A DNA stretch of 56,250 nt from Candidatus Hodarchaeum mangrovi. Its GTDB lineage: Archaea; Asgardarchaeota; Heimdallarchaeia; Hodarchaeales; Hodarchaeaceae. Positions 311 to 10,906 of this stretch are shown piece by piece (position 1 is the stretch's first letter; the number at the start of each line of letters is the position of its first letter). Made by a program: the position numbers and the translations under genes. Under the pieces are notes generated by a model. It searched no databases. It saw nothing but the letters and a program-made list of their open reading frames with translations, and was not told the DNA's origin. Where the stretch lies: the NCBI GenBank assembly GCA_016839515.1, contig JAEOUE010000054.1:1-56250 (forward strand), in the 5' to 3' direction.

Positions 311-1132
311 TCATTCTTTAGCACGCTGTGATTTAACAATAAAGGCAGTCATCCTCTTCATTTCTTTTTCCATGCTATCTAGTTGAGTATTGATTTTCGT
401 TTGGACTGCAGTGTCAATTTCCTGTTGAATTACTTGTGGTAATGCAGAAAGATTTTGATTCATTCTTTCAATAGAGGTTGTGAGTCTTTGCAAGCTTTCA
501 TCTTGAAATGCCATTCGTTCGGCAACAGAAGTTTTTAGCTCGTTTACTGAGGCTTCTAGATAAATAACGATTCGATCTCTTAGAGATGATAATTCTACTT
601 GAATGATCGCATTTACACGGTCTCGGAGATCTCCAACGGTAGCGAGTTGGTCAGCTTGATTCTCGAGCAACGAATTCAATCCACTTTCAATTTGCTGCAA
701 TGCATCATTAATCATTAGAAAATTAGTTATACTAGCTTCATATTGTTCCTTTGTTTTCTCTGTTGAGGTCTTCACCATGTCACTTATTTGTAAAGAAAGA
801 TTTCGCATATTTCCAACGACATCTTCCACGTAACTAACTTTAATAAACTTCAGATCGTCTCGTGTCTCTTTAGCTAGAGATTCAAATGCCTTCTGAAATG
901 ACGAAATAGATTGTTCTAGGGTTTGAATGATCTGAGGTAATGTCTGAATCGAATTCTGTAAAGTTCCACTTATTCTTGTATTTTGAATTTCTTGAGATAA
1001 TTGATCAGTTGTTGATTTAAGATCTCCAATCGAAGCAACCATTATTTTTAAAGATGAAGTGATTTCACCAAATCTTCCCATCATTTCTTTTGTTAATTGT
1101 TCAATAGTTCTCAGTGTTTCCTCGATTCCCAT
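311..1132 (-). CDS. Coiled-coil protein, last gene of the tubulin-like cluster
   Basis: 273-aa ORF, heptad-rich (L/I/Q/E/S), with almost no Pro, Trp or Cys; SD-like GGTGAGG just upstream of the ATG. Confidence 0.8.
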   Translation of the reverse strand: MGIEETLRTIEQLTKEMMGRFGEITSSLKIMVASIGDLKSTTDQLSQEIQNTRISGTLQNSIQTLPQIIQTLEQSISSFQKAFESLAKETRDDLKFIKVSYVEDVVGNMRNLSLQISDMVKTSTEKTKEQYEASITNFLMINDALQQIESGLNSLLENQADQLATVGDLRDRVNAIIQVELSSLRDRIVIYLEASVNELKTSVAERMAFQDESLQRLTTSIERMNQNLSALPQVIQQEIDTAVQTKINTQLDSMEKEMKRMTAFIVKSQRAKE

Positions 1133-1285: not shown

Positions 1286-2332
1286 CTATTTTAAACGTCT
1301 TAAATAACGAACATATCTTTCATTGGCTAAAAGAGAATCATTGATTTTATGGATAAGAATCATTGTTTCTGAATAAAGAAATTGTCTGAATTCATCTTGT
1401 GGATACATTTTCATTTCCTGATAACAAGATTTAACAATATTAAACGAAACGTTTGGAATTCGTGTTTCCAAGTCACCTGGGCCAAGATTAAAACCCCGTA
1501 GTACATTCATTGACACTCTTAGTGAGTCGGAAAGATTTCTTTTGCCCAATAAAAATGCAGAGACATTAAAAAAATATTGTTTAATTATATCTTGGACTTC
1601 TTCTTTTTCAAAAGGGAGAATTTCCTTTCCAGTTTCATCAGGAAACAACTTTTTTAAATTCTGTAACAAACGAGCTGATGGAGCTTCTCTTAATAACTTC
1701 TCGATCAGTTCCTGTAACTTTTGGGAAGGGATCTGGTATATTTCATGATTAGGAACATCATTTATTTCCTTTTGAATTCTAAATCGAAAAATCTCTTTAC
1801 AGCCTTCAAAATAATAATAGGGAAACGCAATATGAGACAGATTGGTATAGTTATCCATAAATGATCTCAATGATTCTATCAATCCCCAAGAATCGGTATA
1901 ATATGGATCTAAGTCAAAAACACCTATTTGTTCTTTTGCAGCTATAATAGGTTTTGATTGATCATTTACTTCCATTATTAAAGTTTCTTTTGGAATGTCT
2001 GTTTCAAGTAACCCATCTAATTTTGATTGAAGAGTTGTTATTTTTTCTATCAACTGTAAATCAGAATCAGGTTGAGCCTGAAGCGCTATAATGAAATCAT
2101 TAATTAATCGTACTTCTCGCATAATATCTTCTGGCACAGGTAGGGATTCTGATAGTTTTAGAAGGATTTTTATTGTGAGATTTAGGGTAAGGACATTTAA
2201 TCCTACTAAAGTATTAATTTTTTCTCCCATATTTCCTCGTGATTTCCAAAACTCTGTTTTTAAATCAGAAGGCAGAGATATTGAGGAAGAAGCATTATGA
2301 GGGTCAGTAGGAGGTGAATTTTTTTCATCCAC
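1286..2332 (-). CDS. Hypothetical alpha-helical protein
   Basis: 348-aa ORF with GTG start and AAGGTG SD-like motif; 14 bp downstream of the tubulin-like gene. Confidence 0.75.
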   Translation of the reverse strand: MDEKNSPPTDPHNASSSISLPSDLKTEFWKSRGNMGEKINTLVGLNVLTLNLTIKILLKLSESLPVPEDIMREVRLINDFIIALQAQPDSDLQLIEKITTLQSKLDGLLETDIPKETLIMEVNDQSKPIIAAKEQIGVFDLDPYYTDSWGLIESLRSFMDNYTNLSHIAFPYYYFEGCKEIFRFRIQKEINDVPNHEIYQIPSQKLQELIEKLLREAPSARLLQNLKKLFPDETGKEILPFEKEEVQDIIKQYFFNVSAFLLGKRNLSDSLRVSMNVLRGFNLGPGDLETRIPNVSFNIVKSCYQEMKMYPQDEFRQFLYSETMILIHKINDSLLANERYVRYLRRLK

Positions 2333-2346
2333 TTGTTTCCAGCACC

Positions 2347-3735
2347 TTATGTTGATTTCTGTTCTGGTGTAATGTAATAACCAAATAATTTCTCAAGATC
2401 ATTTACCGCGTTAATTAATTCTTCTCGGGTTGTACCTTTTGAACGCTTGAACCAATGTTGTTTTAACTCGGAGTCACCGCTATGTAGTTGGATCAATGAT
2501 TTGGCCTCTTCTAGAATGTCATGAAGTTCTGGAATCTTTGGAAGACCGAATAAGAGAAGTAAGGAAGCTTTGGTGGCATCATCATCATAAGCACAATAAG
2601 TTGGAGAAATACTTGCTCCTTTAGCTAAAAAAGGCGTAAGAGATTTTTTTAGAAAAGGATCAAATTCAACCCGAGCAATATCCCGGGATCCACTCAATAC
2701 AGAAAATACCGATGAAGCAGCAGGGTTATTACCCATATTGGTAAGACTACAGTTTGAAACTGTATATTCAATTGCTGTATTGAGCTGTGATCCCATTCCT
2801 CCGACTTCAGGAAAGACAGTTAAATCATTAAACATAGCAGGAACTACAACACTATCAAGTTTTAACGCAAAATCTCCGATATCAGTAGTTGGAAGTACCT
2901 CTTTTCCTATTTCAGGGACTCCAGGCGAAAGCATTTCAGCAATTGATTCCAACGCAAGAGGATTTATTAACTCCACAAATTGTTCTTCGAGTTGAGTTGG
3001 AAACTCATTAGAATCTTGTCCTAATATTATTGGAGTTGTTGACTTTAATTTCTCTTTACTTAAATCAGCTAAATCATTTCCAGTTTGTCTGCTTAAAAGA
3101 TCTACAGATTCTCCTCTTTGCATACTAAGCACCCGTTCAAGCATTGTTCGATTAGAAAGAAGAAGTATTAGATCAGGACCCATGTTTCCCTCTTCTAGCT
3201 GCAAACGAAGAAGCTTTGACAAAGCCCAAACACTATTCACAGCTTCACTTGACTGGTTATTGAATGGTAGAACACCAAAAACATAAATGAAAATCTTCCG
3301 TTTTTCTTGTTCTGCAAATCTTTTTCTTAACAAACGAATTAACGCAGGAGTTCCTCCACAACCTGTTCCCCCTCCAAAACTAGTGAAAATGCAAAATCCA
3401 CTGATTCCTTCGTATCCGAGCGCTTGTAATTGATTGAGTATAATATCTTCTGAGCTAATAACTGCATCAAATCCCGCAGAAAATTTCCCACCCACACCAA
3501 TTTCAGCATCAGAATAAAGTAAAGTTCGTTTCGACGATATTGAATATTTTTGTCTTGCTTTAAGCAAATCACCCCGATCCGTGTTCATTACTAAATATTC
3601 ACGAATTCGTGGTGGAAGTTCACCTTTTTTAGATCTAGCTAGGTAGCTCCCTACAAGATTGCTACCACATTCCCCTAAACCTATACAGAATACCTGTGAA
3701 GTATTTGAATTAACAGTTTCCATTTTTATTACCAA
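2347..3735 (-). CDS. Divergent tubulin/FtsZ-superfamily GTPase (CetZ/FtsZ-like)
   Basis: T1 IGLGECGSNL, T2 NTD, T3 GVGG, T4 signature GGGTGCG (3355-3375), VLPF, T7-like TTDIGD; true start probably the ATG at 3723. Confidence 0.9.
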   Translation of the reverse strand: MVIKMETVNSNTSQVFCIGLGECGSNLVGSYLARSKKGELPPRIREYLVMNTDRGDLLKARQKYSISSKRTLLYSDAEIGVGGKFSAGFDAVISSEDIILNQLQALGYEGISGFCIFTSFGGGTGCGGTPALIRLLRKRFAEQEKRKIFIYVFGVLPFNNQSSEAVNSVWALSKLLRLQLEEGNMGPDLILLLSNRTMLERVLSMQRGESVDLLSRQTGNDLADLSKEKLKSTTPIILGQDSNEFPTQLEEQFVELINPLALESIAEMLSPGVPEIGKEVLPTTDIGDFALKLDSVVVPAMFNDLTVFPEVGGMGSQLNTAIEYTVSNCSLTNMGNNPAASSVFSVLSGSRDIARVEFDPFLKKSLTPFLAKGASISPTYCAYDDDATKASLLLLFGLPKIPELHDILEEAKSLIQLHSGDSELKQHWFKRSKGTTREELINAVNDLEKLFGYYITPEQKST

Positions 3736-3804: not shown

Positions 3805-6800
3805 TTACAGTAGTGACACTCCAGTTTTCAATTCAATAAATAATCTCATCGCTAAGGATAGATAGGCGCGAATTACTCTATTATTAGGATATGTTTCCGA
3901 TATCTTTTTTTCTATTTCCTTGAATTGTCGAATATTTTCTTCTGGGCTGTCTGTTGGAATATATCTAGGACGAAACATCCTTATTGCCCTATGCCACTTA
4001 TTTAGCTGAATTGCAACCTTCTTCCATTCTTCACGTTGATCATCAATTTGGGGAAGTAGTTCTAAAATGAAACGTAAATCATGTGATGACATTAATTCTT
4101 CCCGATCATTTACCAACTTTGACAAAGGGAAAATTTTCTTAGATGCTTCTTTTGTATAATGTTTGTATACTTCTTGTATATTAGAATAATATTCAAATTT
4201 CCCTAGTTCAGATTGAACCACAGCATTTTGTTCTTTTTCTATTTGTTTGACAATATTAATTATAATTTGCCGGACTCCAGCTAATTCTAAGATAGCTTTT
4301 GTTAATCTACCGACATGGTTAGTAGCTGCGGTCTCCTGAAATTTGTTTAAGTACATTAAATCAATACGTTCATCATGTCTTAGATCTTTTTGATAATTTA
4401 AAAAGAGATATTCAATAGTCTCTTGAATTTCAGTTATATATTTCGTTCCCATATCTCTTATAGCCTTACATGCTTTAGAATCGTTTTGTAATTGATCAAT
4501 TTCTACAAAAACTTCTGTAATCTCTTTGAGTTGAACATCTTCTTGATTTTTCACAATAATTTGGCTAAATCGTTCAATATAATGCCCGACATATTCGATG
4601 ATATTTATTCCAACTTCTTTCAAATCATTTACATTTTTTAAGACATTTCGTGATTCATTGACTGCTTGTGATAACAAGATAGCAACAATTTCAGTGTCAT
4701 ACAAATAAATTAATTGTCGTAATTTGTGAGCAAGACGTTCATGGGAAACCTCTTCAGGTTCAAAATTTGATATTTTTTCTTCTGCACTAAATATTACTGG
4801 ATCAAGGGGTGCAATTTCGTTAATTCTTGGTAAGCTTACCCTAATCCAGTTATATAAATTCTGATGAAGCTTAGCAAGGGAATCTTTTGCCATCTGGAGG
4901 CTTTCAAGACTATAACTTTCGAAAATGTTAACTAAACGAACAATATCCTTGTGAGTCTTAATTTCTTCCATCCGTTCTTTCATTAAATCAACTGTTTTAT
5001 CAAAAAACTCTGCATACTGTCGTGGGAGTTTGGAATAGTCTTGAATATGAGAAGAAATTTCTCTTTCCATTTGTTCTGCAAGTGTTGCAGATTTACGTTC
5101 AATGTAAGACTTTAATTGCCAATATTCTGTTAATGCTTCAGAATAATCAAGATTTTCAAATTCTCTCTCTGGTGTATAAGAAACTAAGACCTTTTGGGCC
5201 TTAAATAATCTATAAAGTCGTTTATCAACACCCTCTAAGCTTTCTAACCGTGTTTTTAACTCAACTAATATCTCATTTTTATTTTCTTCAATTTTTTCCA
5301 AGAATGAGATATAATCCCGAATTATTGATTCGATATCACCTGCTTCAGCGTATTTATCAACCAATGAAACTATTTCATTACGTTTTTCACGTAAATCATA
5401 TTGTGTTTCGATTGGAAGAAGAGGAAAAGGGATTGTTTTCAGATTTTCCCGAACACGGGTGGATATTTTATATTTCCAAACAGGAATTTTTTCGTATTCA
5501 TCCAATAACTCTTGAATTGAGCCTTCTGAAGCCACATTAATATCTTCACGGAACGCTTTAAGATCATCAAAGACTAAAGGAGGGACATGAGATTTCAATT
5601 TGGGAGGAATTGTCTCCAAACTTATTAGCTGATTAAGAATAGGGTGAATTTCACTATCAATAGCATTCCAAAGTTCATTTTTAATGCTTTGATTGAGACG
5701 ATTTAAACTCTCAATCTCTTTAACAAGTTCTCTTATCTCAATATCATCAGAGCTTTTTTGCGCTTTTATTACTTCGATCTTTTCTTTAAGATCATTCGAG
5801 AGAATTTTTTGGATACTTTCGCGAGAATCATAAAGATTTATCAAATTTTGACGTAAACTTTGCTGTGCAGGTTTTGAAAAGAAAGCAACGAGTCGAGTTT
5901 CCCATTCCTTAATTTCTCGTGCCTTATTAACTAATTCACTTGTAGTAAGGGAATCAAAATCCTTTATTGTTGGAATTGGAGGCCCATTACTGACATTAAT
6001 CACTTCTTGGATATGTGGATTTTCTAATAAACGGAAAAAGTAGTTTTGACAACCTTCTGCTAATTGAGATTTTAAATCATAAAATCGTTTGATTAAAAAT
6101 ACCCAATTCTGAAGACCCTGAGTTTTTTCAGCTTCCTTTTCAATTTCATGTATATTTTCAACAAAGTTTTCAGGAGTTGGAATTTTCATAGCCCCAATGG
6201 TCTTTGAGGCATTAATTAATTCTGCAGTACCTACTAATTTTTTCGCATTTAATAATTGTTGTTGGTACCAAGACCGAATTTTTTCAATATCTTGAATGAT
6301 AATAGGAATCGAAGAAGTAGAAACATCAATTTCTGGAGTTGAGGTATTGCTAATATCCATTGGCTGATCTCCTACAATCTGGAGAATCCTACCAATTTGA
6401 TCTTCTGTCTCGGTTTTAAGTGAAATTTCATAGGTTCGTAATAAATTAATATATTCTTTACTTATATTGTTCAATTGCTTTTCTAAATCAAGTAATTCTT
6501 CAACGGAGATCGTTCCTTCAATTTTTGTTCGAATTTCAAGTAGTTCTTGTTTCAAAATAAGAGGTTTATCTCCTAGATTTAATCCAATAGACTCAACTGT
6601 GTCTAGATGCTGTTGTAGTTCTGAGATCATTTGGATGATTGCAACTTGAATTTTACCTTCGGTTCCTTTTTGTTTTTGTTTCAAATAGGCATTTTCTGTT
6701 TCTAAATCATCATATAATGTTAACAAATCAGGAATAGTCATGACATGTATGCTTGCTTTTGTCATTTTACTAGTTAAACGGATTTTTTCTTCATTAAATT

Positions 6801-7320
6801 CTATGAATTTGCCATATAAATCAACGATTTCGCGGTTAAAAACAAGAGTTGAAAGGGTTTTCCCTCTTAATACTTCGGAAATCTGATTATAAATTTTCAA
6901 AACTGTAGAGCTAAATTTTATAATTTGGTCAGGATTGAAACTCGGAATTTGTAGCTTTCTGATCGCTTCTGTCTCTTGAGGGATAAACTTGGCAATTTCT
7001 TTAATATTATTTGCCAAATCAAAGTAAATTTTTCTAAATCCAACAAGCAACGTATTTAAAAGGTCTTCTGTAAGTTTTTTATACTGAACAAGGTTTTGAT
7101 CAAGAGATTTTTTTAGTCCTCTTTTTTTAAAGAACCCAGCAGTTTTAAGCTCTTTTTCTATTCTTTCAATCTCAATTACTAGTTTCTGGGCCTCATTTAC
7201 TGTTGATACTTGGACTGTGGGGTCAATTGAACGTAATTCAGTTGTTAAATCACGAATAACCACTATCTGAGCCTTGGAAACTAGATCTTTGTTTACCGAT
7301 GACATTTTCCTAGCATCCAT
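3805..7320 (-). CDS. Giant alpha-helical repeat / coiled-coil protein
   Basis: 1171-aa ORF rich in E/K/L/I, with recurring amphipathic helices; no Walker motifs and no TM segment. Confidence 0.8.
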   Translation of the reverse strand: MDARKMSSVNKDLVSKAQIVVIRDLTTELRSIDPTVQVSTVNEAQKLVIEIERIEKELKTAGFFKKRGLKKSLDQNLVQYKKLTEDLLNTLLVGFRKIYFDLANNIKEIAKFIPQETEAIRKLQIPSFNPDQIIKFSSTVLKIYNQISEVLRGKTLSTLVFNREIVDLYGKFIEFNEEKIRLTSKMTKASIHVMTIPDLLTLYDDLETENAYLKQKQKGTEGKIQVAIIQMISELQQHLDTVESIGLNLGDKPLILKQELLEIRTKIEGTISVEELLDLEKQLNNISKEYINLLRTYEISLKTETEDQIGRILQIVGDQPMDISNTSTPEIDVSTSSIPIIIQDIEKIRSWYQQQLLNAKKLVGTAELINASKTIGAMKIPTPENFVENIHEIEKEAEKTQGLQNWVFLIKRFYDLKSQLAEGCQNYFFRLLENPHIQEVINVSNGPPIPTIKDFDSLTTSELVNKAREIKEWETRLVAFFSKPAQQSLRQNLINLYDSRESIQKILSNDLKEKIEVIKAQKSSDDIEIRELVKEIESLNRLNQSIKNELWNAIDSEIHPILNQLISLETIPPKLKSHVPPLVFDDLKAFREDINVASEGSIQELLDEYEKIPVWKYKISTRVRENLKTIPFPLLPIETQYDLREKRNEIVSLVDKYAEAGDIESIIRDYISFLEKIEENKNEILVELKTRLESLEGVDKRLYRLFKAQKVLVSYTPEREFENLDYSEALTEYWQLKSYIERKSATLAEQMEREISSHIQDYSKLPRQYAEFFDKTVDLMKERMEEIKTHKDIVRLVNIFESYSLESLQMAKDSLAKLHQNLYNWIRVSLPRINEIAPLDPVIFSAEEKISNFEPEEVSHERLAHKLRQLIYLYDTEIVAILLSQAVNESRNVLKNVNDLKEVGINIIEYVGHYIERFSQIIVKNQEDVQLKEITEVFVEIDQLQNDSKACKAIRDMGTKYITEIQETIEYLFLNYQKDLRHDERIDLMYLNKFQETAATNHVGRLTKAILELAGVRQIIINIVKQIEKEQNAVVQSELGKFEYYSNIQEVYKHYTKEASKKIFPLSKLVNDREELMSSHDLRFILELLPQIDDQREEWKKVAIQLNKWHRAIRMFRPRYIPTDSPEENIRQFKEIEKKISETYPNNRVIRAYLSLAMRLFIELKTGVSLL

Positions 7321-7572: not shown

Positions 7573-8382
7573 ATGGTGCTGCTAATGAACCAAGTCTTAA
7601 TAATAGCAATTGGAAATGAATTGCTTTCAGGAAAAACGGTAAACACAAATTCCACTTTTCTAGCAGAAAAATTAACTAATCTTGGATTAACTGTGAAAAA
7701 AATCCTAACTCTTCCAGATGAAAGAGAAATAGTTGTATCAGAATTAACTAATGCCCTAATTAAAAAGAATTATAGAATAATAATAATAACAGGAGGATTA
7801 GGCCCTACTTGGGATGATTCCACGGCGAGTTTTCTAGCTGAGACCTTAAATGTTCCCCTTAAAATCCACCCTGAAGGAATTAATATTGTTACTCAGCGTT
7901 ACCAAGAATTGTATAGAAATGGGTTGGTTGATACAGAGAAAATTACCTCAGCACGAAAGAAGATGGCTTATTTGCCTGTAGGGGCAAAACCCATTTATAA
8001 TCCTGTTGGAACAGCACCAGGTATATATTTTGATCATAAACCTTCCAATTGTTGGATTTTTTGCTTACCTGGAGTTCCTAAAGAAATGCAAGAAATGTTT
8101 TCTATCATTGAACCTCAATTCCATGATATTCAGAAAAAAGAACATTTAGAATTCTACGAAGAAAATCTAATAGTTCCTTTTACTGATGAATCATTGTTAG
8201 CACCTTTTTTAGACCAAGTAAGAGAAAAATTCAATGTTTGGATTAAATCTCTTCCAAAAACATATCAAGAAGGGGAAAATATAATGTTAATCATATCTTT
8301 CTCATCTGATAAGAATGGGGAAGCAAAAAATACGGTTTTAAAGGCAAAAGAATATCTTAATTTATTGATTAAATCAAAATGA
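7573..8382 (+). CDS. cinA: CinA-like molybdopterin-binding-fold protein (archaeal form, no PncC domain)
   Basis: IGNELLSGKTVNTN, TGGLGPTWDD, NPVGTAPG and LPGVPKEM motifs. Confidence 0.88.
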   Translation: MVLLMNQVLIIAIGNELLSGKTVNTNSTFLAEKLTNLGLTVKKILTLPDEREIVVSELTNALIKKNYRIIIITGGLGPTWDDSTASFLAETLNVPLKIHPEGINIVTQRYQELYRNGLVDTEKITSARKKMAYLPVGAKPIYNPVGTAPGIYFDHKPSNCWIFCLPGVPKEMQEMFSIIEPQFHDIQKKEHLEFYEENLIVPFTDESLLAPFLDQVREKFNVWIKSLPKTYQEGENIMLIISFSSDKNGEAKNTVLKAKEYLNLLIKSK

Positions 8383-8605: not shown

Positions 8606-10906
8606 ATGTCTGAAGAGGATATAGGTCTAACATTAAAGGTTGCTGAAGCAAACCAAAGTGATGTTGGACGAGGATTAGTAAGAATTGATTACTCAATTAT
8701 GCGTGAATTTAACCTAGAAACTGGGGATATTGTTGAAATTTCTAGCGATAGACCAGGGGGAAGGAAAACTGGTGCTTTAGTCATTCCAGGTAGAAGGGAA
8801 GACCGAGGAAAACGTATTATACGGATGGATGGTCTTATTAGAGGGAATGTTGGTACAAGTTTGGGAGAAACAGTTCGTGTTAGAGCAATTAAAAAACGAG
8901 AAGCAAAACATATTACTATTGCTCCTGCAGAGGAACGAATTCGTTTACTTGTTAAATCTGATATTATTAGAGAACGATTACAGAATCATCCTATTTCAAG
9001 AGGAGATCTACTTGTAATTACAGGGCAGATCCGTAAAATTCCACCTTCTGGAGGTACACCTGGTAAAGGGATGGATGAATTCATTTCAAGATTTTTTGGA
9101 GCATCCAGTCCAGTAAGTCTTGGGGAAATAAAAGTTGTTGTAGTTAACACCGATCCTGATGGAATTGTCACTGTAGGTGATGGAACAGAAGTCCATATTA
9201 TTGAGGAAGCTCCTAAAGATCTTCGTATGCTTCCTCGAGTCACATATGAGGATATTGGAGGATTAGCAGAAGAAATTAAAAGAGTCAGGGAAATGATTGA
9301 ACTTCCTATGAAACATCCGGAGCTTTTTGAACGATTGGGTATAGATCCACCCAAAGGAGTACTTCTTCATGGCCCACCTGGAACTGGAAAAACTCTTCTT
9401 GCCAAAGCAGTCGCTAATGAGTCGGGAGTTAATTTTGTATCAATAGCAGGACCAGAAATCATGTCTAAATTTTATGGTGAAAGTGAACAGCGTATAAGAG
9501 AAATTTTTCAACAGGCAGAGAAGGATGCTCCTTCTATTATATTTATAGATGAATTAGATTCGATTGCTGCGAAACGAGAAGAAGTTACAGGAGAGGTTGA
9601 ACGTCGTGTGGTTGCACAACTCCTTGCTCTCATGGATGGTTTGAAAAGTCGTGGAAAAGTAATTGTTATTGGAGCTACTAATCGTCCTAATGCTCTTGAC
9701 CCTGCTTTAAGACGGCCTGGGCGCTTTGATAGGGAAATTGAAATAGGTGTTCCCTCAAGAATGGGGAGATATGAAGTACTTCTTGTACATACCCGTGGAA
9801 TGCCCTTAGCAGAGGATGTTGATTTAGAAGAATATGCAGCTAAAACTCATGGATTTGTCGGAGCGGATATTGCAGCTTTAACCAAAGAGTCAGCAATGCA
9901 TACCCTACGAAAAATCTTGCCAAAAATTGATTTTGATAAACCATTATCTCCAGAGATTCTTTCAAAATTAGTTGTCTCAAAAGAAAACTTTGATGAAGCT
10001 TTGAAAATCACTGAACCGTCTGCAATGCGAGAAGTTTTACTAGAAATACCCAATATAATGTGGGAAGATGTTGGAGGCCTAGAAGATGTCAAACAAAAAT
10101 TAATTGAAGCTGTAGATTGGCCTATTACACATCCAGAAATTTTTAAGCGACATGGTGTCAGACCTCCTCATGGTATATTATTATTTGGCCCACCAGGAAC
10201 AGGAAAAACTTTATTAGCAAAAGCAGTTGCTACCGAAAGTCAAGCTAACTTTATTGCGGTCAGAGGACCCGAATTATTATCAAAATGGGTCGGAGAAAGT
10301 GAAAAAGCTGTACGGGAAGTCTTTCGAAAAGCAAAGCAAGCTTCACCTTCAATTATTTTCTTAGATGAATTAGATTCAATTGCACCACGAAGAGGAGCCT
10401 TCACTGGAGGAAGCCATGTAACAGAGAGTGTTGTTAACCAAATCTTGTCTCTTTTAGATGGTTTAGAAAATTTATCAGATGTAGTGGTTTTAGCTGCTAG
10501 TAACCGTCCAGATATGATAGATCCAGCACTTTTACGACCTGGACGATTTGATCGTCTTTTGCTTGTACCACCTCCTGATGAGAATTCACGAATGAAGATT
10601 CTTCAGATCCATACTAAAGGTATGAAACTTTCACCCAATGTTGACCTTGCTAACTTTGCACATAAGCTAGAAGGTTATGTCGGATCCGATATTGAAGCCA
10701 TATGCCGTGAAGCGGTTATGATTGCCCTTAGAGAGGATTTAAAGACTCAAAAAATAGAATCAAGACACTTTGAAGATGCAATGAAATCAGTCCACCCAAG
10801 CTCTAATGAGAAAATTATGAGGGAATTTGAAGAAATTGAGAAAAAATTTCTCGGGAGATCAGAAATTGGCCGTAAAGATATTCTTGGTTTGAAGGATTAT
10901 TTATAG
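8606..10906 (+). CDS. cdc48: CDC48/VCP/VAT family AAA+ ATPase
   Basis: N-domain plus two AAA modules (GPPGTGKT twice, IDE/LDE Walker B, DPALxRPGRFDR twice). Confidence 0.97.

Follow-up and report, generated by a model that had tools for sequence, protein, structure and literature searches.

We identified a tubulin-like gene on the minus strand (2347..3723) of a 56,250-nucleotide stretch of the Candidatus Hodarchaeum mangrovi contig JAEOUE010000054.1 (assembly GCA_016839515.1, positions 1 to 56,250 of the forward strand; hereafter the window), and judged from its sequence the gene is intact and belongs to Asg.Tub, a branch within the tubulin/FtsZ superfamily that is confined to Asgard archaea. 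With a rough probability of 0.6, we propose that its product binds GTP and assembles head to tail with hydrolysis activated through the T7 loop, that it has a cytoskeletal role outside cell division, and that the products of two partner genes bind or regulate the polymer. The family itself has already been named, and what is added here are distribution counts, the co-inheritance of three genes, and the recognition of a duplicated module.

Results

Gene model and family assignment

The longest open reading frame (ORF) at this place, 2347..3735 on the minus strand, opens at a TTG codon at 3735 and codes for 462 amino acids (aa); all residue numbers of the tubulin-like protein given here are counted from this TTG. 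An ATG at 3723 lies 12 nt inside the frame, and because homologues begin at the same place and the 97%-identical relative P0001 is 458 aa long, this ATG is probably the true start, which gives a coding sequence of 2347..3723 and a product of 458 aa. The host genome, 91% complete in 348 contigs, holds three genes with the Pfam domain PF00091, namely a canonical FtsZ on another contig (160.9 bits), the window gene (paralogue A) and a second Asg.Tub gene. The stretch is present in 20 DNA runs from seven studies, labelled mostly as sediment metagenome and in three cases as soil, and no RNA run with the locus was among the 24 sequencing runs listed.

Asg.Tub was named in 2023 by Santana-Molina, del Saz-Navarro and Devos (Front Microbiol, PMC9871819) as a 'CetZ-like group in Asgardarchaeota'. 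In the accessible parts of that work, the supplementary figures group OLS26264.1 (LC-3), PWI48967.1 (B3-JM-08) and KXH77455.1 (Thorarchaeales), and the hidden Markov model (HMM) Asg.Tub-C in the authors' archive was built from four sequences (NSEQ 4). Positions 44-68 of this HMM (25 of 237), reading pGvaelgkdvlpttdladyarklds, match all 21 defined positions of the consensus of the family described here, SPGVxExGKxVxPTTDLADYARKLDS, and agree with 17 of the 25 residues of the window protein. Among the relatives of the window protein are a protein from LC_3 and a locus from B3_Heim, which are kinds of metagenome-assembled genome (MAG) matching those of the published group. Since the T7 block of the HMM is the T7 block of the family and the MAG sources of the members are of the same kinds, the window protein can be assigned by sequence to the published Asg.Tub group, as a further member in the paralogue-A clade of Hodarchaeales type. 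The initial annotation had described a distinct family; it is indeed distinct, as the comparison with FtsZ and CetZ below indicates, but it is not new. The published account, as far as its accessible parts go, covers four sequences and gives no partner families, distribution or paralogues. [quoted passage not shown]

A word-indexed search returned 151 proteins at E <=0.001. Identities among the 120 matches listed run from 97% down to 50%, and their source names are all Asgard (Hodarchaeales, Heimdallarchaeota, Thor-, Hermod- and Promethearchaeota); all 80 loci fetched for the neighbourhood analysis are titled Asgard or 'uncultured archaeon'. An exhaustive search of 1.84 billion cluster representatives gave 41 at E <=0.001 and three below 1e-30, with E-values dropping from 3e-168 to 4e-99 (P0121, 41% identity), then to fragments and to 3e-22 (P0126, 32%), and among these representatives there was no other full-length relative above 32% identity. 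This steep drop marks the family as tight and isolated. The loops of the two remote proteins are variant, with VTDMADI for T7 in P0121 (454 aa) and GIGEGGGN for T1 and VADLMDY for T7 in P0126 (457 aa), and both may represent sister groups of Asg.Tub. By the sequences retrieved, Asg.Tub appears restricted to Asgard archaea, in Heimdallarchaeia and in the Thor-type lineage that the taxonomy of PMC9871819 places under Lokiarchaeia. Using a profile at E <=1e-60, we found it in 124 of 400 sampled Asgard genomes (31%), in 32 of the 90 of high quality, and in 19 of the 21 genomes of the window's genus.

Relation to CetZ, FtsZ and tubulins

By sequence, the closest solved chains are those of CetZ (3zid, 4b46 and 4b45; E 2e-11 to 2e-6). 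When the single sequence was searched against solved structures, the best match was CetZ 3zid (E 9.5e-7), followed by 4b46 (5.8e-6), and the family profile gave 4b46 (2.1e-11) and 3zid (1.6e-8) ahead of OdinTubulin (7.9e-6) and eukaryotic tubulins (about 1e-4). All these matches are limited to the N-terminal domain. Similarity to CetZ covers profile positions 12-171, with C-terminal stretches scoring -0.8 and -1.6 bits, and similarity to tubulins (E 8e-6 to 2e-4) is confined to positions 73-200, so full-length similarity was found to neither.

These results bear on two other explanations. The gene might be no more than a diverged orthologue of ordinary FtsZ or CetZ in a low-GC genome, since CetZ chains are its best PDB matches by sequence and the relative from Heimdallarchaeota LC_3 carries the database label 'Tubulin-like protein CetZ'. 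However, the score against the FtsZ equivalog TIGR00065 (NCBIfam) is 28.1 bits versus a cut-off of 295.2, identity to CetZ 3zid in structural alignments is 18-21%, only three of the 1.84 billion representatives fall below E 1e-30, a separate FtsZ is present in the genome, and identities of 50-97% across Asgard classes among the matches listed indicate a conserved family, not a decaying gene. No high-identity match to an ordinary CetZ or FtsZ, named at the outset as a finding that would overturn a separate family, was obtained, and this explanation is contradicted on each of these counts and very improbable. Alternatively, Asg.Tub could be an early-branching true tubulin near OdinTubulin, AtubA/B and eukaryotic tubulins, and not CetZ-like. 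In the accessible parts of PMC9871819, the published trees place the group, unstably, between CetZ and tubulins, which agrees with this idea, but indels separate it from tubulins, and by indels and rooting the authors judged it nearer to CetZ; they also report a gene context different from that of CetZ. As the profile E-values in our searches are likewise better for CetZ (2e-11 and 2e-8) than for OdinTubulin (8e-6), we regard an early-branching true tubulin as unlikely.

Conserved GTPase motifs

The N-terminal GTP-binding domain (residues 15-200; 3136..3693, minus strand) has a mean column identity of 0.78 in the family alignment, and its residues 15-175 match PF00091 with an E-value of 1.4e-15 (58.5 bits versus a cut-off of 33). 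In the T1 loop, GLGECGSN (residues 19-26; 3658..3681, minus strand), G19, G21, E22, G24 and N26 are invariant. The T1 motif of tubulins is GQCG, and the Cys of the Asg.Tub loop is as in tubulins (OdinTubulin, AtubA/B, BtubA/B and eukaryotic alpha, beta and gamma). The initial view that GECG stands closer to the tubulin and CetZ form than to that of FtsZ (GGAG or GGGG) was confirmed, since CetZ 3zid has GVGQCGNR, which the G-x-C-G-N-like Asg.Tub loop resembles, whereas the host's own FtsZ has GVGGAGNN. The T4 signature reads GGGTGCGGTP on translation (residues 121-130; 3346..3375, minus strand), as had also been noted for its GGGTGCG part; the variable position of the superfamily signature GGGTG[ST]G, which is Ser in tubulin and Thr in FtsZ, is here Cys. 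The remaining loops are MNTDR (T2), IGVGG (T3), LPFNNQSSE (T5) and LLSN (T6, residues 192-195), and an NPLA motif is located in H7. The N-T-D of T2 is shared with FtsZ and differs from OdinTubulin, AtubA/B, BtubA/B and eukaryotic tubulins.

The T7 loop and the start of H8 are represented by PTTDIGDF (residues 282-289; 2869..2892, minus strand), between predicted H7 and H8. Both of its aspartates, D285 and D288, are invariant in the family alignment, as are N195 and N258. The acidic pair had been described as FtsZ-style; the D-x-x-D pattern is present and is shared with FtsZ (NLDFADV in the host FtsZ), but it is not specific to FtsZ, as CetZ 3zid has VTDLGDF at the aligned place, in a stretch that by itself scores just 2.2 bits. 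Motif conservation was counted in the 118 full-length members (>=430 aa) among the 120 relatives listed of 151, whose retrieval was not based on motifs. Among these, the T1 pattern G-x-G-E-[CA]-G-[SC]-N, the Cys of T4 and the D-x-x-D of T7 are each retained in all 118; the full GGGTGCG is retained in 115, the exceptions being GGGSGCG (two) and GGVTGCG (one).

Predicted fold, insert and C-terminal helices

The AlphaFold2 model (predicted template modelling score, pTM, 0.81) has a complete two-domain tubulin/FtsZ fold. Since predicted H7 (247-272) and H8 (286-292) bracket them, D285 and D288 would occupy the positions of the T7 catalytic residues of the superfamily. The top fold matches include gamma-tubulin chains, and the fold leaves undecided whether the protein is tubulin-like or CetZ-like because the match values are nearly tied.

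Between H6 and H7 lies a lineage-specific, flexible insert of 45 residues, SMQRGESVDLL...EFPTQ (residues 204-248; 2992..3126, minus strand), in keeping with the roughly 40 residues initially placed after LLSN. Over residues 209-248, its predicted local distance difference test (pLDDT) values stay under 50. Residues 204-224, the first half, are semi-conserved, with a mean column identity of 0.58 and D221 invariant, and the second half (225-248) is hypervariable, gap-rich and predicted to be disordered (0.36, versus 0.78 in the GTPase domain). The T6 Asn and the H7 Asn are 63 residues apart in the window protein, compared with 50-69 (median 60) among 170 members. Compared with CetZ 3zid, model residues 12-425 make up 414 residues against 349, and the 65 extra residues include the insert.

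The C-terminus is formed by three predicted helices (402-417, 423-433 and 437-454; region 402-454 at 2374..2532, minus strand) with the motif HWFKRSKG, and 8 residues remain beyond the last helix. The expected helical extension is thus present in the model, and Asg.Tub differs from FtsZ in having no long disordered C-terminal linker. These 53 residues match the activation domain in conservation, with a column identity of 0.68, and H418, W428, F429, S432, K433, G434, D446, L450 and F451 are invariant, a pattern more in line with a binding surface than with a spacer. In structural alignments of the predicted model, for which the end residues alone are reported, the match to tubulins reaches model residue 456-458 (chain residue 424-437), whereas that to CetZ 3zid ends at model residue 425, so that the last helix (437-454) is without an aligned counterpart in the 3zid chain. 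The C-terminal helices may therefore stand at the place of tubulin H11-H12.

Co-inheritance with two partner genes

Four ORFs follow one another on the minus strand: one of 1171 aa, the tubulin-like gene, one of 348 aa and one of 273 aa. The upstream partner gene (1171 aa; 3805..7320) stops 81 nt short of the tubulin-like gene's ATG, and the downstream partner gene (348 aa; 1286..2332) starts with GTG 14 nt past the stop codon of the tubulin-like gene, behind GGTG. Neither partner belongs to a Pfam family. According to the accessible parts of PMC9871819, the gene context of Asg.Tub consists mostly of coiled-coil proteins without assigned function, and our findings agree with this in that both partners are without a Pfam family and the context is conserved.

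The neighbourhood was sampled at 80 loci from one-genome-per-species contigs with tblastn, using the proteins of the window. In 71 of the 75 loci whose flank is long enough, the gene directly upstream is the large one, and the 348-aa gene lies downstream in 70 of 76 testable loci, the six misses all being paralogue-B loci. Two clade-A loci are exceptions to the tight adjacency: in the B3_Heim locus L011 (183-3695 and 8001-9332), about 4.3 kb separate the large gene from the tubulin-like gene, and L010 has no large gene within 8 kb upstream. The large protein is longer in the Heimdall/Hod-type lineages (1140-1185 aa) than in those of Thor type (about 895-940 aa), and the part common to both types is the C-terminal ~450 aa.

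The three genes were then compared over the same 400 Asgard genomes, with profiles for Asg.Tub (E <=1e-60), the 348-aa family and the C-terminal domain of the large protein (450 aa; both at E <=1e-10), and the three genome lists were compared by hand. The 348-aa family was detected in 123 genomes, 120 of them shared with Asg.Tub, and the large-protein domain in 126, with 121 shared; all three genes occur together in 117 genomes. Asg.Tub is found without the small partner in four genomes (G068, G078, G330 and G390) and without the large partner in three (G332, G339 and G367), the small partner without Asg.Tub in three (G062, G095 and G340), and the large partner without Asg.Tub in five (G059, G102, G321, G329 and G340). 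The discordant genomes are all fragmented MAGs (67-92% complete) from otherwise module-bearing families, and several of the matches are cut by contig ends. The three genes are also jointly missing from the same families, such as f4, which belongs to the window's class (0 of 31 genomes), and f20 (0 of 135), and at the family level the three phyletic patterns agree completely.

This co-inheritance is also in keeping with a different role, in which Asg.Tub would be a GTP-binding tubulin-fold protein without dynamic filaments that forms a stoichiometric complex or switch with its partners, serving for example as cap, nucleator or adaptor, much as gamma-tubulin does with the helical GCP proteins. 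Its strict co-inheritance with two large helical proteins, the strongly conserved C-terminal helices, which look like a docking surface, and the gamma-tubulin chains among the best fold matches all point in that direction. The T7 aspartates, however, matter only where one subunit contacts the nucleotide of another, as in FtsZ and tubulin, and both are invariant in Asg.Tub; moreover, neither partner resembles a known tubulin-binding family by Pfam, ESM Atlas or fold searches. We therefore hold such a non-filament role, although the chief competitor of our proposal, to be rather doubtful, and retain the polymerising GTPase with polymer-binding partners as the preferred reading.

Further searches said little about the partners themselves. 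In the ESM Atlas, the 348-aa protein had no usable match and the sole match of the 1171-aa protein was a Thorarchaeota cluster at 0.84, and the model of the 348-aa partner gave no convincing match to solved folds. Complex prediction for the GTPase with the 348-aa partner yielded scores of 0.29, 0.34 and 0.00 (mark, 0.32), and these values, having no controls, are evidence neither way. No clear transmembrane segment was seen, the maximum 19-residue hydropathy being 1.64, at residue 42 of the 348-aa protein. Kinship of the two partners with each other was considered and rejected (hhalign probability 0.2%).

The 273-aa ORF (311..1132, minus strand), which is rich in Gln, Glu and Ser, helical, and placed 153 nt beyond the 348-aa ORF, is a local neighbour of the paralogue-A clade, present in all 14 clade-A loci that could be tested and in none of 53 elsewhere. 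In Pfam it has sub-threshold matches of coiled-coil type alone (Baculo_PEP_C, 26.6 bits versus a cut-off of 38), and in PADLOC weak matches to a ZorA tail (E 3e-4) and Csa3, over a range of E 3e-4 to 8e-3.

Divergently upstream of the module, a CinA-like gene with a MoCF_biosynth domain (7573-8382, plus strand) and a gene for a CDC48-type double-AAA ATPase (8606-10906, plus strand) were found. Both flank the module in most paralogue-A loci (53-60% and 86-90% identity), and their recurrence points to a stable chromosomal site for the module. By analogy with TubZ, a tubulin homologue with dedicated small partner genes could also belong to a module for segregation or defence, resembling that of TubZ or PhuZ, on a plasmid, virus or island. 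Against this, PHROGs gave no match for the GTPase, the two partners or the 273-aa ORF, PADLOC gave none for the GTPase or the two partners, the G+C content is within the range of the remaining window, the neighbourhood is stable with the same two flanking genes in close relatives, and the gene is present in nearly all genomes of the genus. A mobile module of this kind is hardly credible here.

Duplication of the module

The second Asg.Tub gene of the same genome (contig C186; L082:670-2007, minus strand) codes for 445 aa, is ~53% identical, and has a separate copy of the large gene in front of it (L082:2020-3477, minus strand). Eight genomes of the window's genus show two full-length Asg.Tub places. 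A quick tree was built with IQ-TREE from 89 rows, comprising 79 of the 80 loci (a 409-aa row was left out), both copies from the host genome and eight remote outgroups, with support from the Shimodaira-Hasegawa-like approximate likelihood ratio test alone; the program warned of long branches around L018. The tree contains a Heimdall/Hod-type clade of 24 rows (support 99), made up of paralogue A (16 rows, 99), paralogue B (7 rows, 100) and L018, apart from a clade of 56 rows (support 95), most of them labelled Thor, and the window gene falls in the paralogue-A clade. The module is thus duplicated in the window's genus, and the window holds paralogue A.

Paralogue B retains the T1, T4 and C-terminal motifs as well as T7, and its module is arranged differently. 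In A, the order is the large, rod-like protein, the tubulin-like protein, the 348-aa protein and the 273-aa protein, and in B it is a 311-aa protein, the rod-like protein and the tubulin-like protein. The 311-aa ORF has no Pfam family and immediately precedes the large gene, in the same orientation, in five of five testable paralogue-B loci (L071:3568-4500, plus strand; also L066, L069, L074 and L055). It was rejected as kin of the 348-aa family (hhalign probability 0.1%), and a single BLASTP match between neighbour proteins (E 9e-4 over 56 residues) was discarded given the hhalign probabilities of 0.1-0.2%. In the host, a small GTPase gene of the Gtr1/RagA family (PF04670, E 6e-16; L082:5-640, plus strand, with its 5' end cut) converges on the paralogue-B gene. 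Because L071 has a different 739-aa ORF on the opposite strand in its place, this association may not be conserved.

Discussion

In this study, a tubulin-like gene of Candidatus Hodarchaeum mangrovi was assigned to Asg.Tub, and we propose the following mechanism. Asg.Tub would bind GTP and assemble head to tail, and D285 and D288 in the T7 loop of one subunit would make the GTPase site of the following subunit complete, in the way known from FtsZ, CetZ and tubulin. It would act together with the co-inherited upstream helical protein (about 895-1185 aa) and the downstream protein of 335-380 aa from the same operon, and the three proteins would form a cytoskeletal module, apart from FtsZ-based division because a canonical FtsZ is encoded on another contig of the genome. 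The initial annotation had already suggested an active, polymerisation-coupled GTPase, and this is a reasonable inference given that the nucleotide loops and the T7 aspartates are conserved and the predicted fold is complete.

Several points weigh against this proposal. First, sequence similarity to solved relatives ends past the N-terminal domain, and for that reason the T7 assignment leans on the predicted structure and one weak alignment. Second, motif counts over 180 sequences agree with the 118-member counts, but they include the 80 loci, which were fetched through their T4 and T7 patterns, and are therefore partly circular. Third, because related genomes lack independence, the co-occurrence counts suggest more separate events than there were; the pattern corresponds to a handful of lineage-level gains or losses and not to 120 events. 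Fourth, paralogue B is without the 348-aa partner in six of six testable loci, and this partner is therefore not obligatory for every family member. Finally, a full-text literature search found no biochemical, structural or expression evidence for any Asg.Tub member, and the accessible parts of PMC12583498, PMC13394414 and PMC10936438 contain no experiment on the family.

The proposal can also be extended, tentatively and at well below even odds. Asg.Tub, the rod-like helical protein and the small protein may constitute a third tubulin-based filament system of Asgard archaea, beside FtsZ and the AtubAB mini-microtubules, in which the H11-H12-like helices dock the partners and which has been duplicated and rearranged in the Hodarchaeales-type lineage.

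Asgard proteins of the tubulin superfamily bear on the origin of the eukaryotic cytoskeleton. Since its naming in 2023, Asg.Tub has served, in the accessible literature, only as an outgroup in trees, if the clade of the 2026 preprint is indeed the same group. Our results describe it as a common family, present in nearly a third of the sampled Asgard genomes, strongly conserved, and tied to two partner genes without a known family. Asg.Tub and its two partners are thus a concrete three-protein system open to expression and imaging. In addition, the accessible part of PMC12583498 cites a 2025 preprint on a cultured member of Hodarchaeales, and if that strain carries the module, its study in cells would be possible. 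If the three proteins do form a third filament system, the C-terminal helices would be a prokaryotic forerunner of the face of tubulin that binds microtubule-associated proteins and motors.

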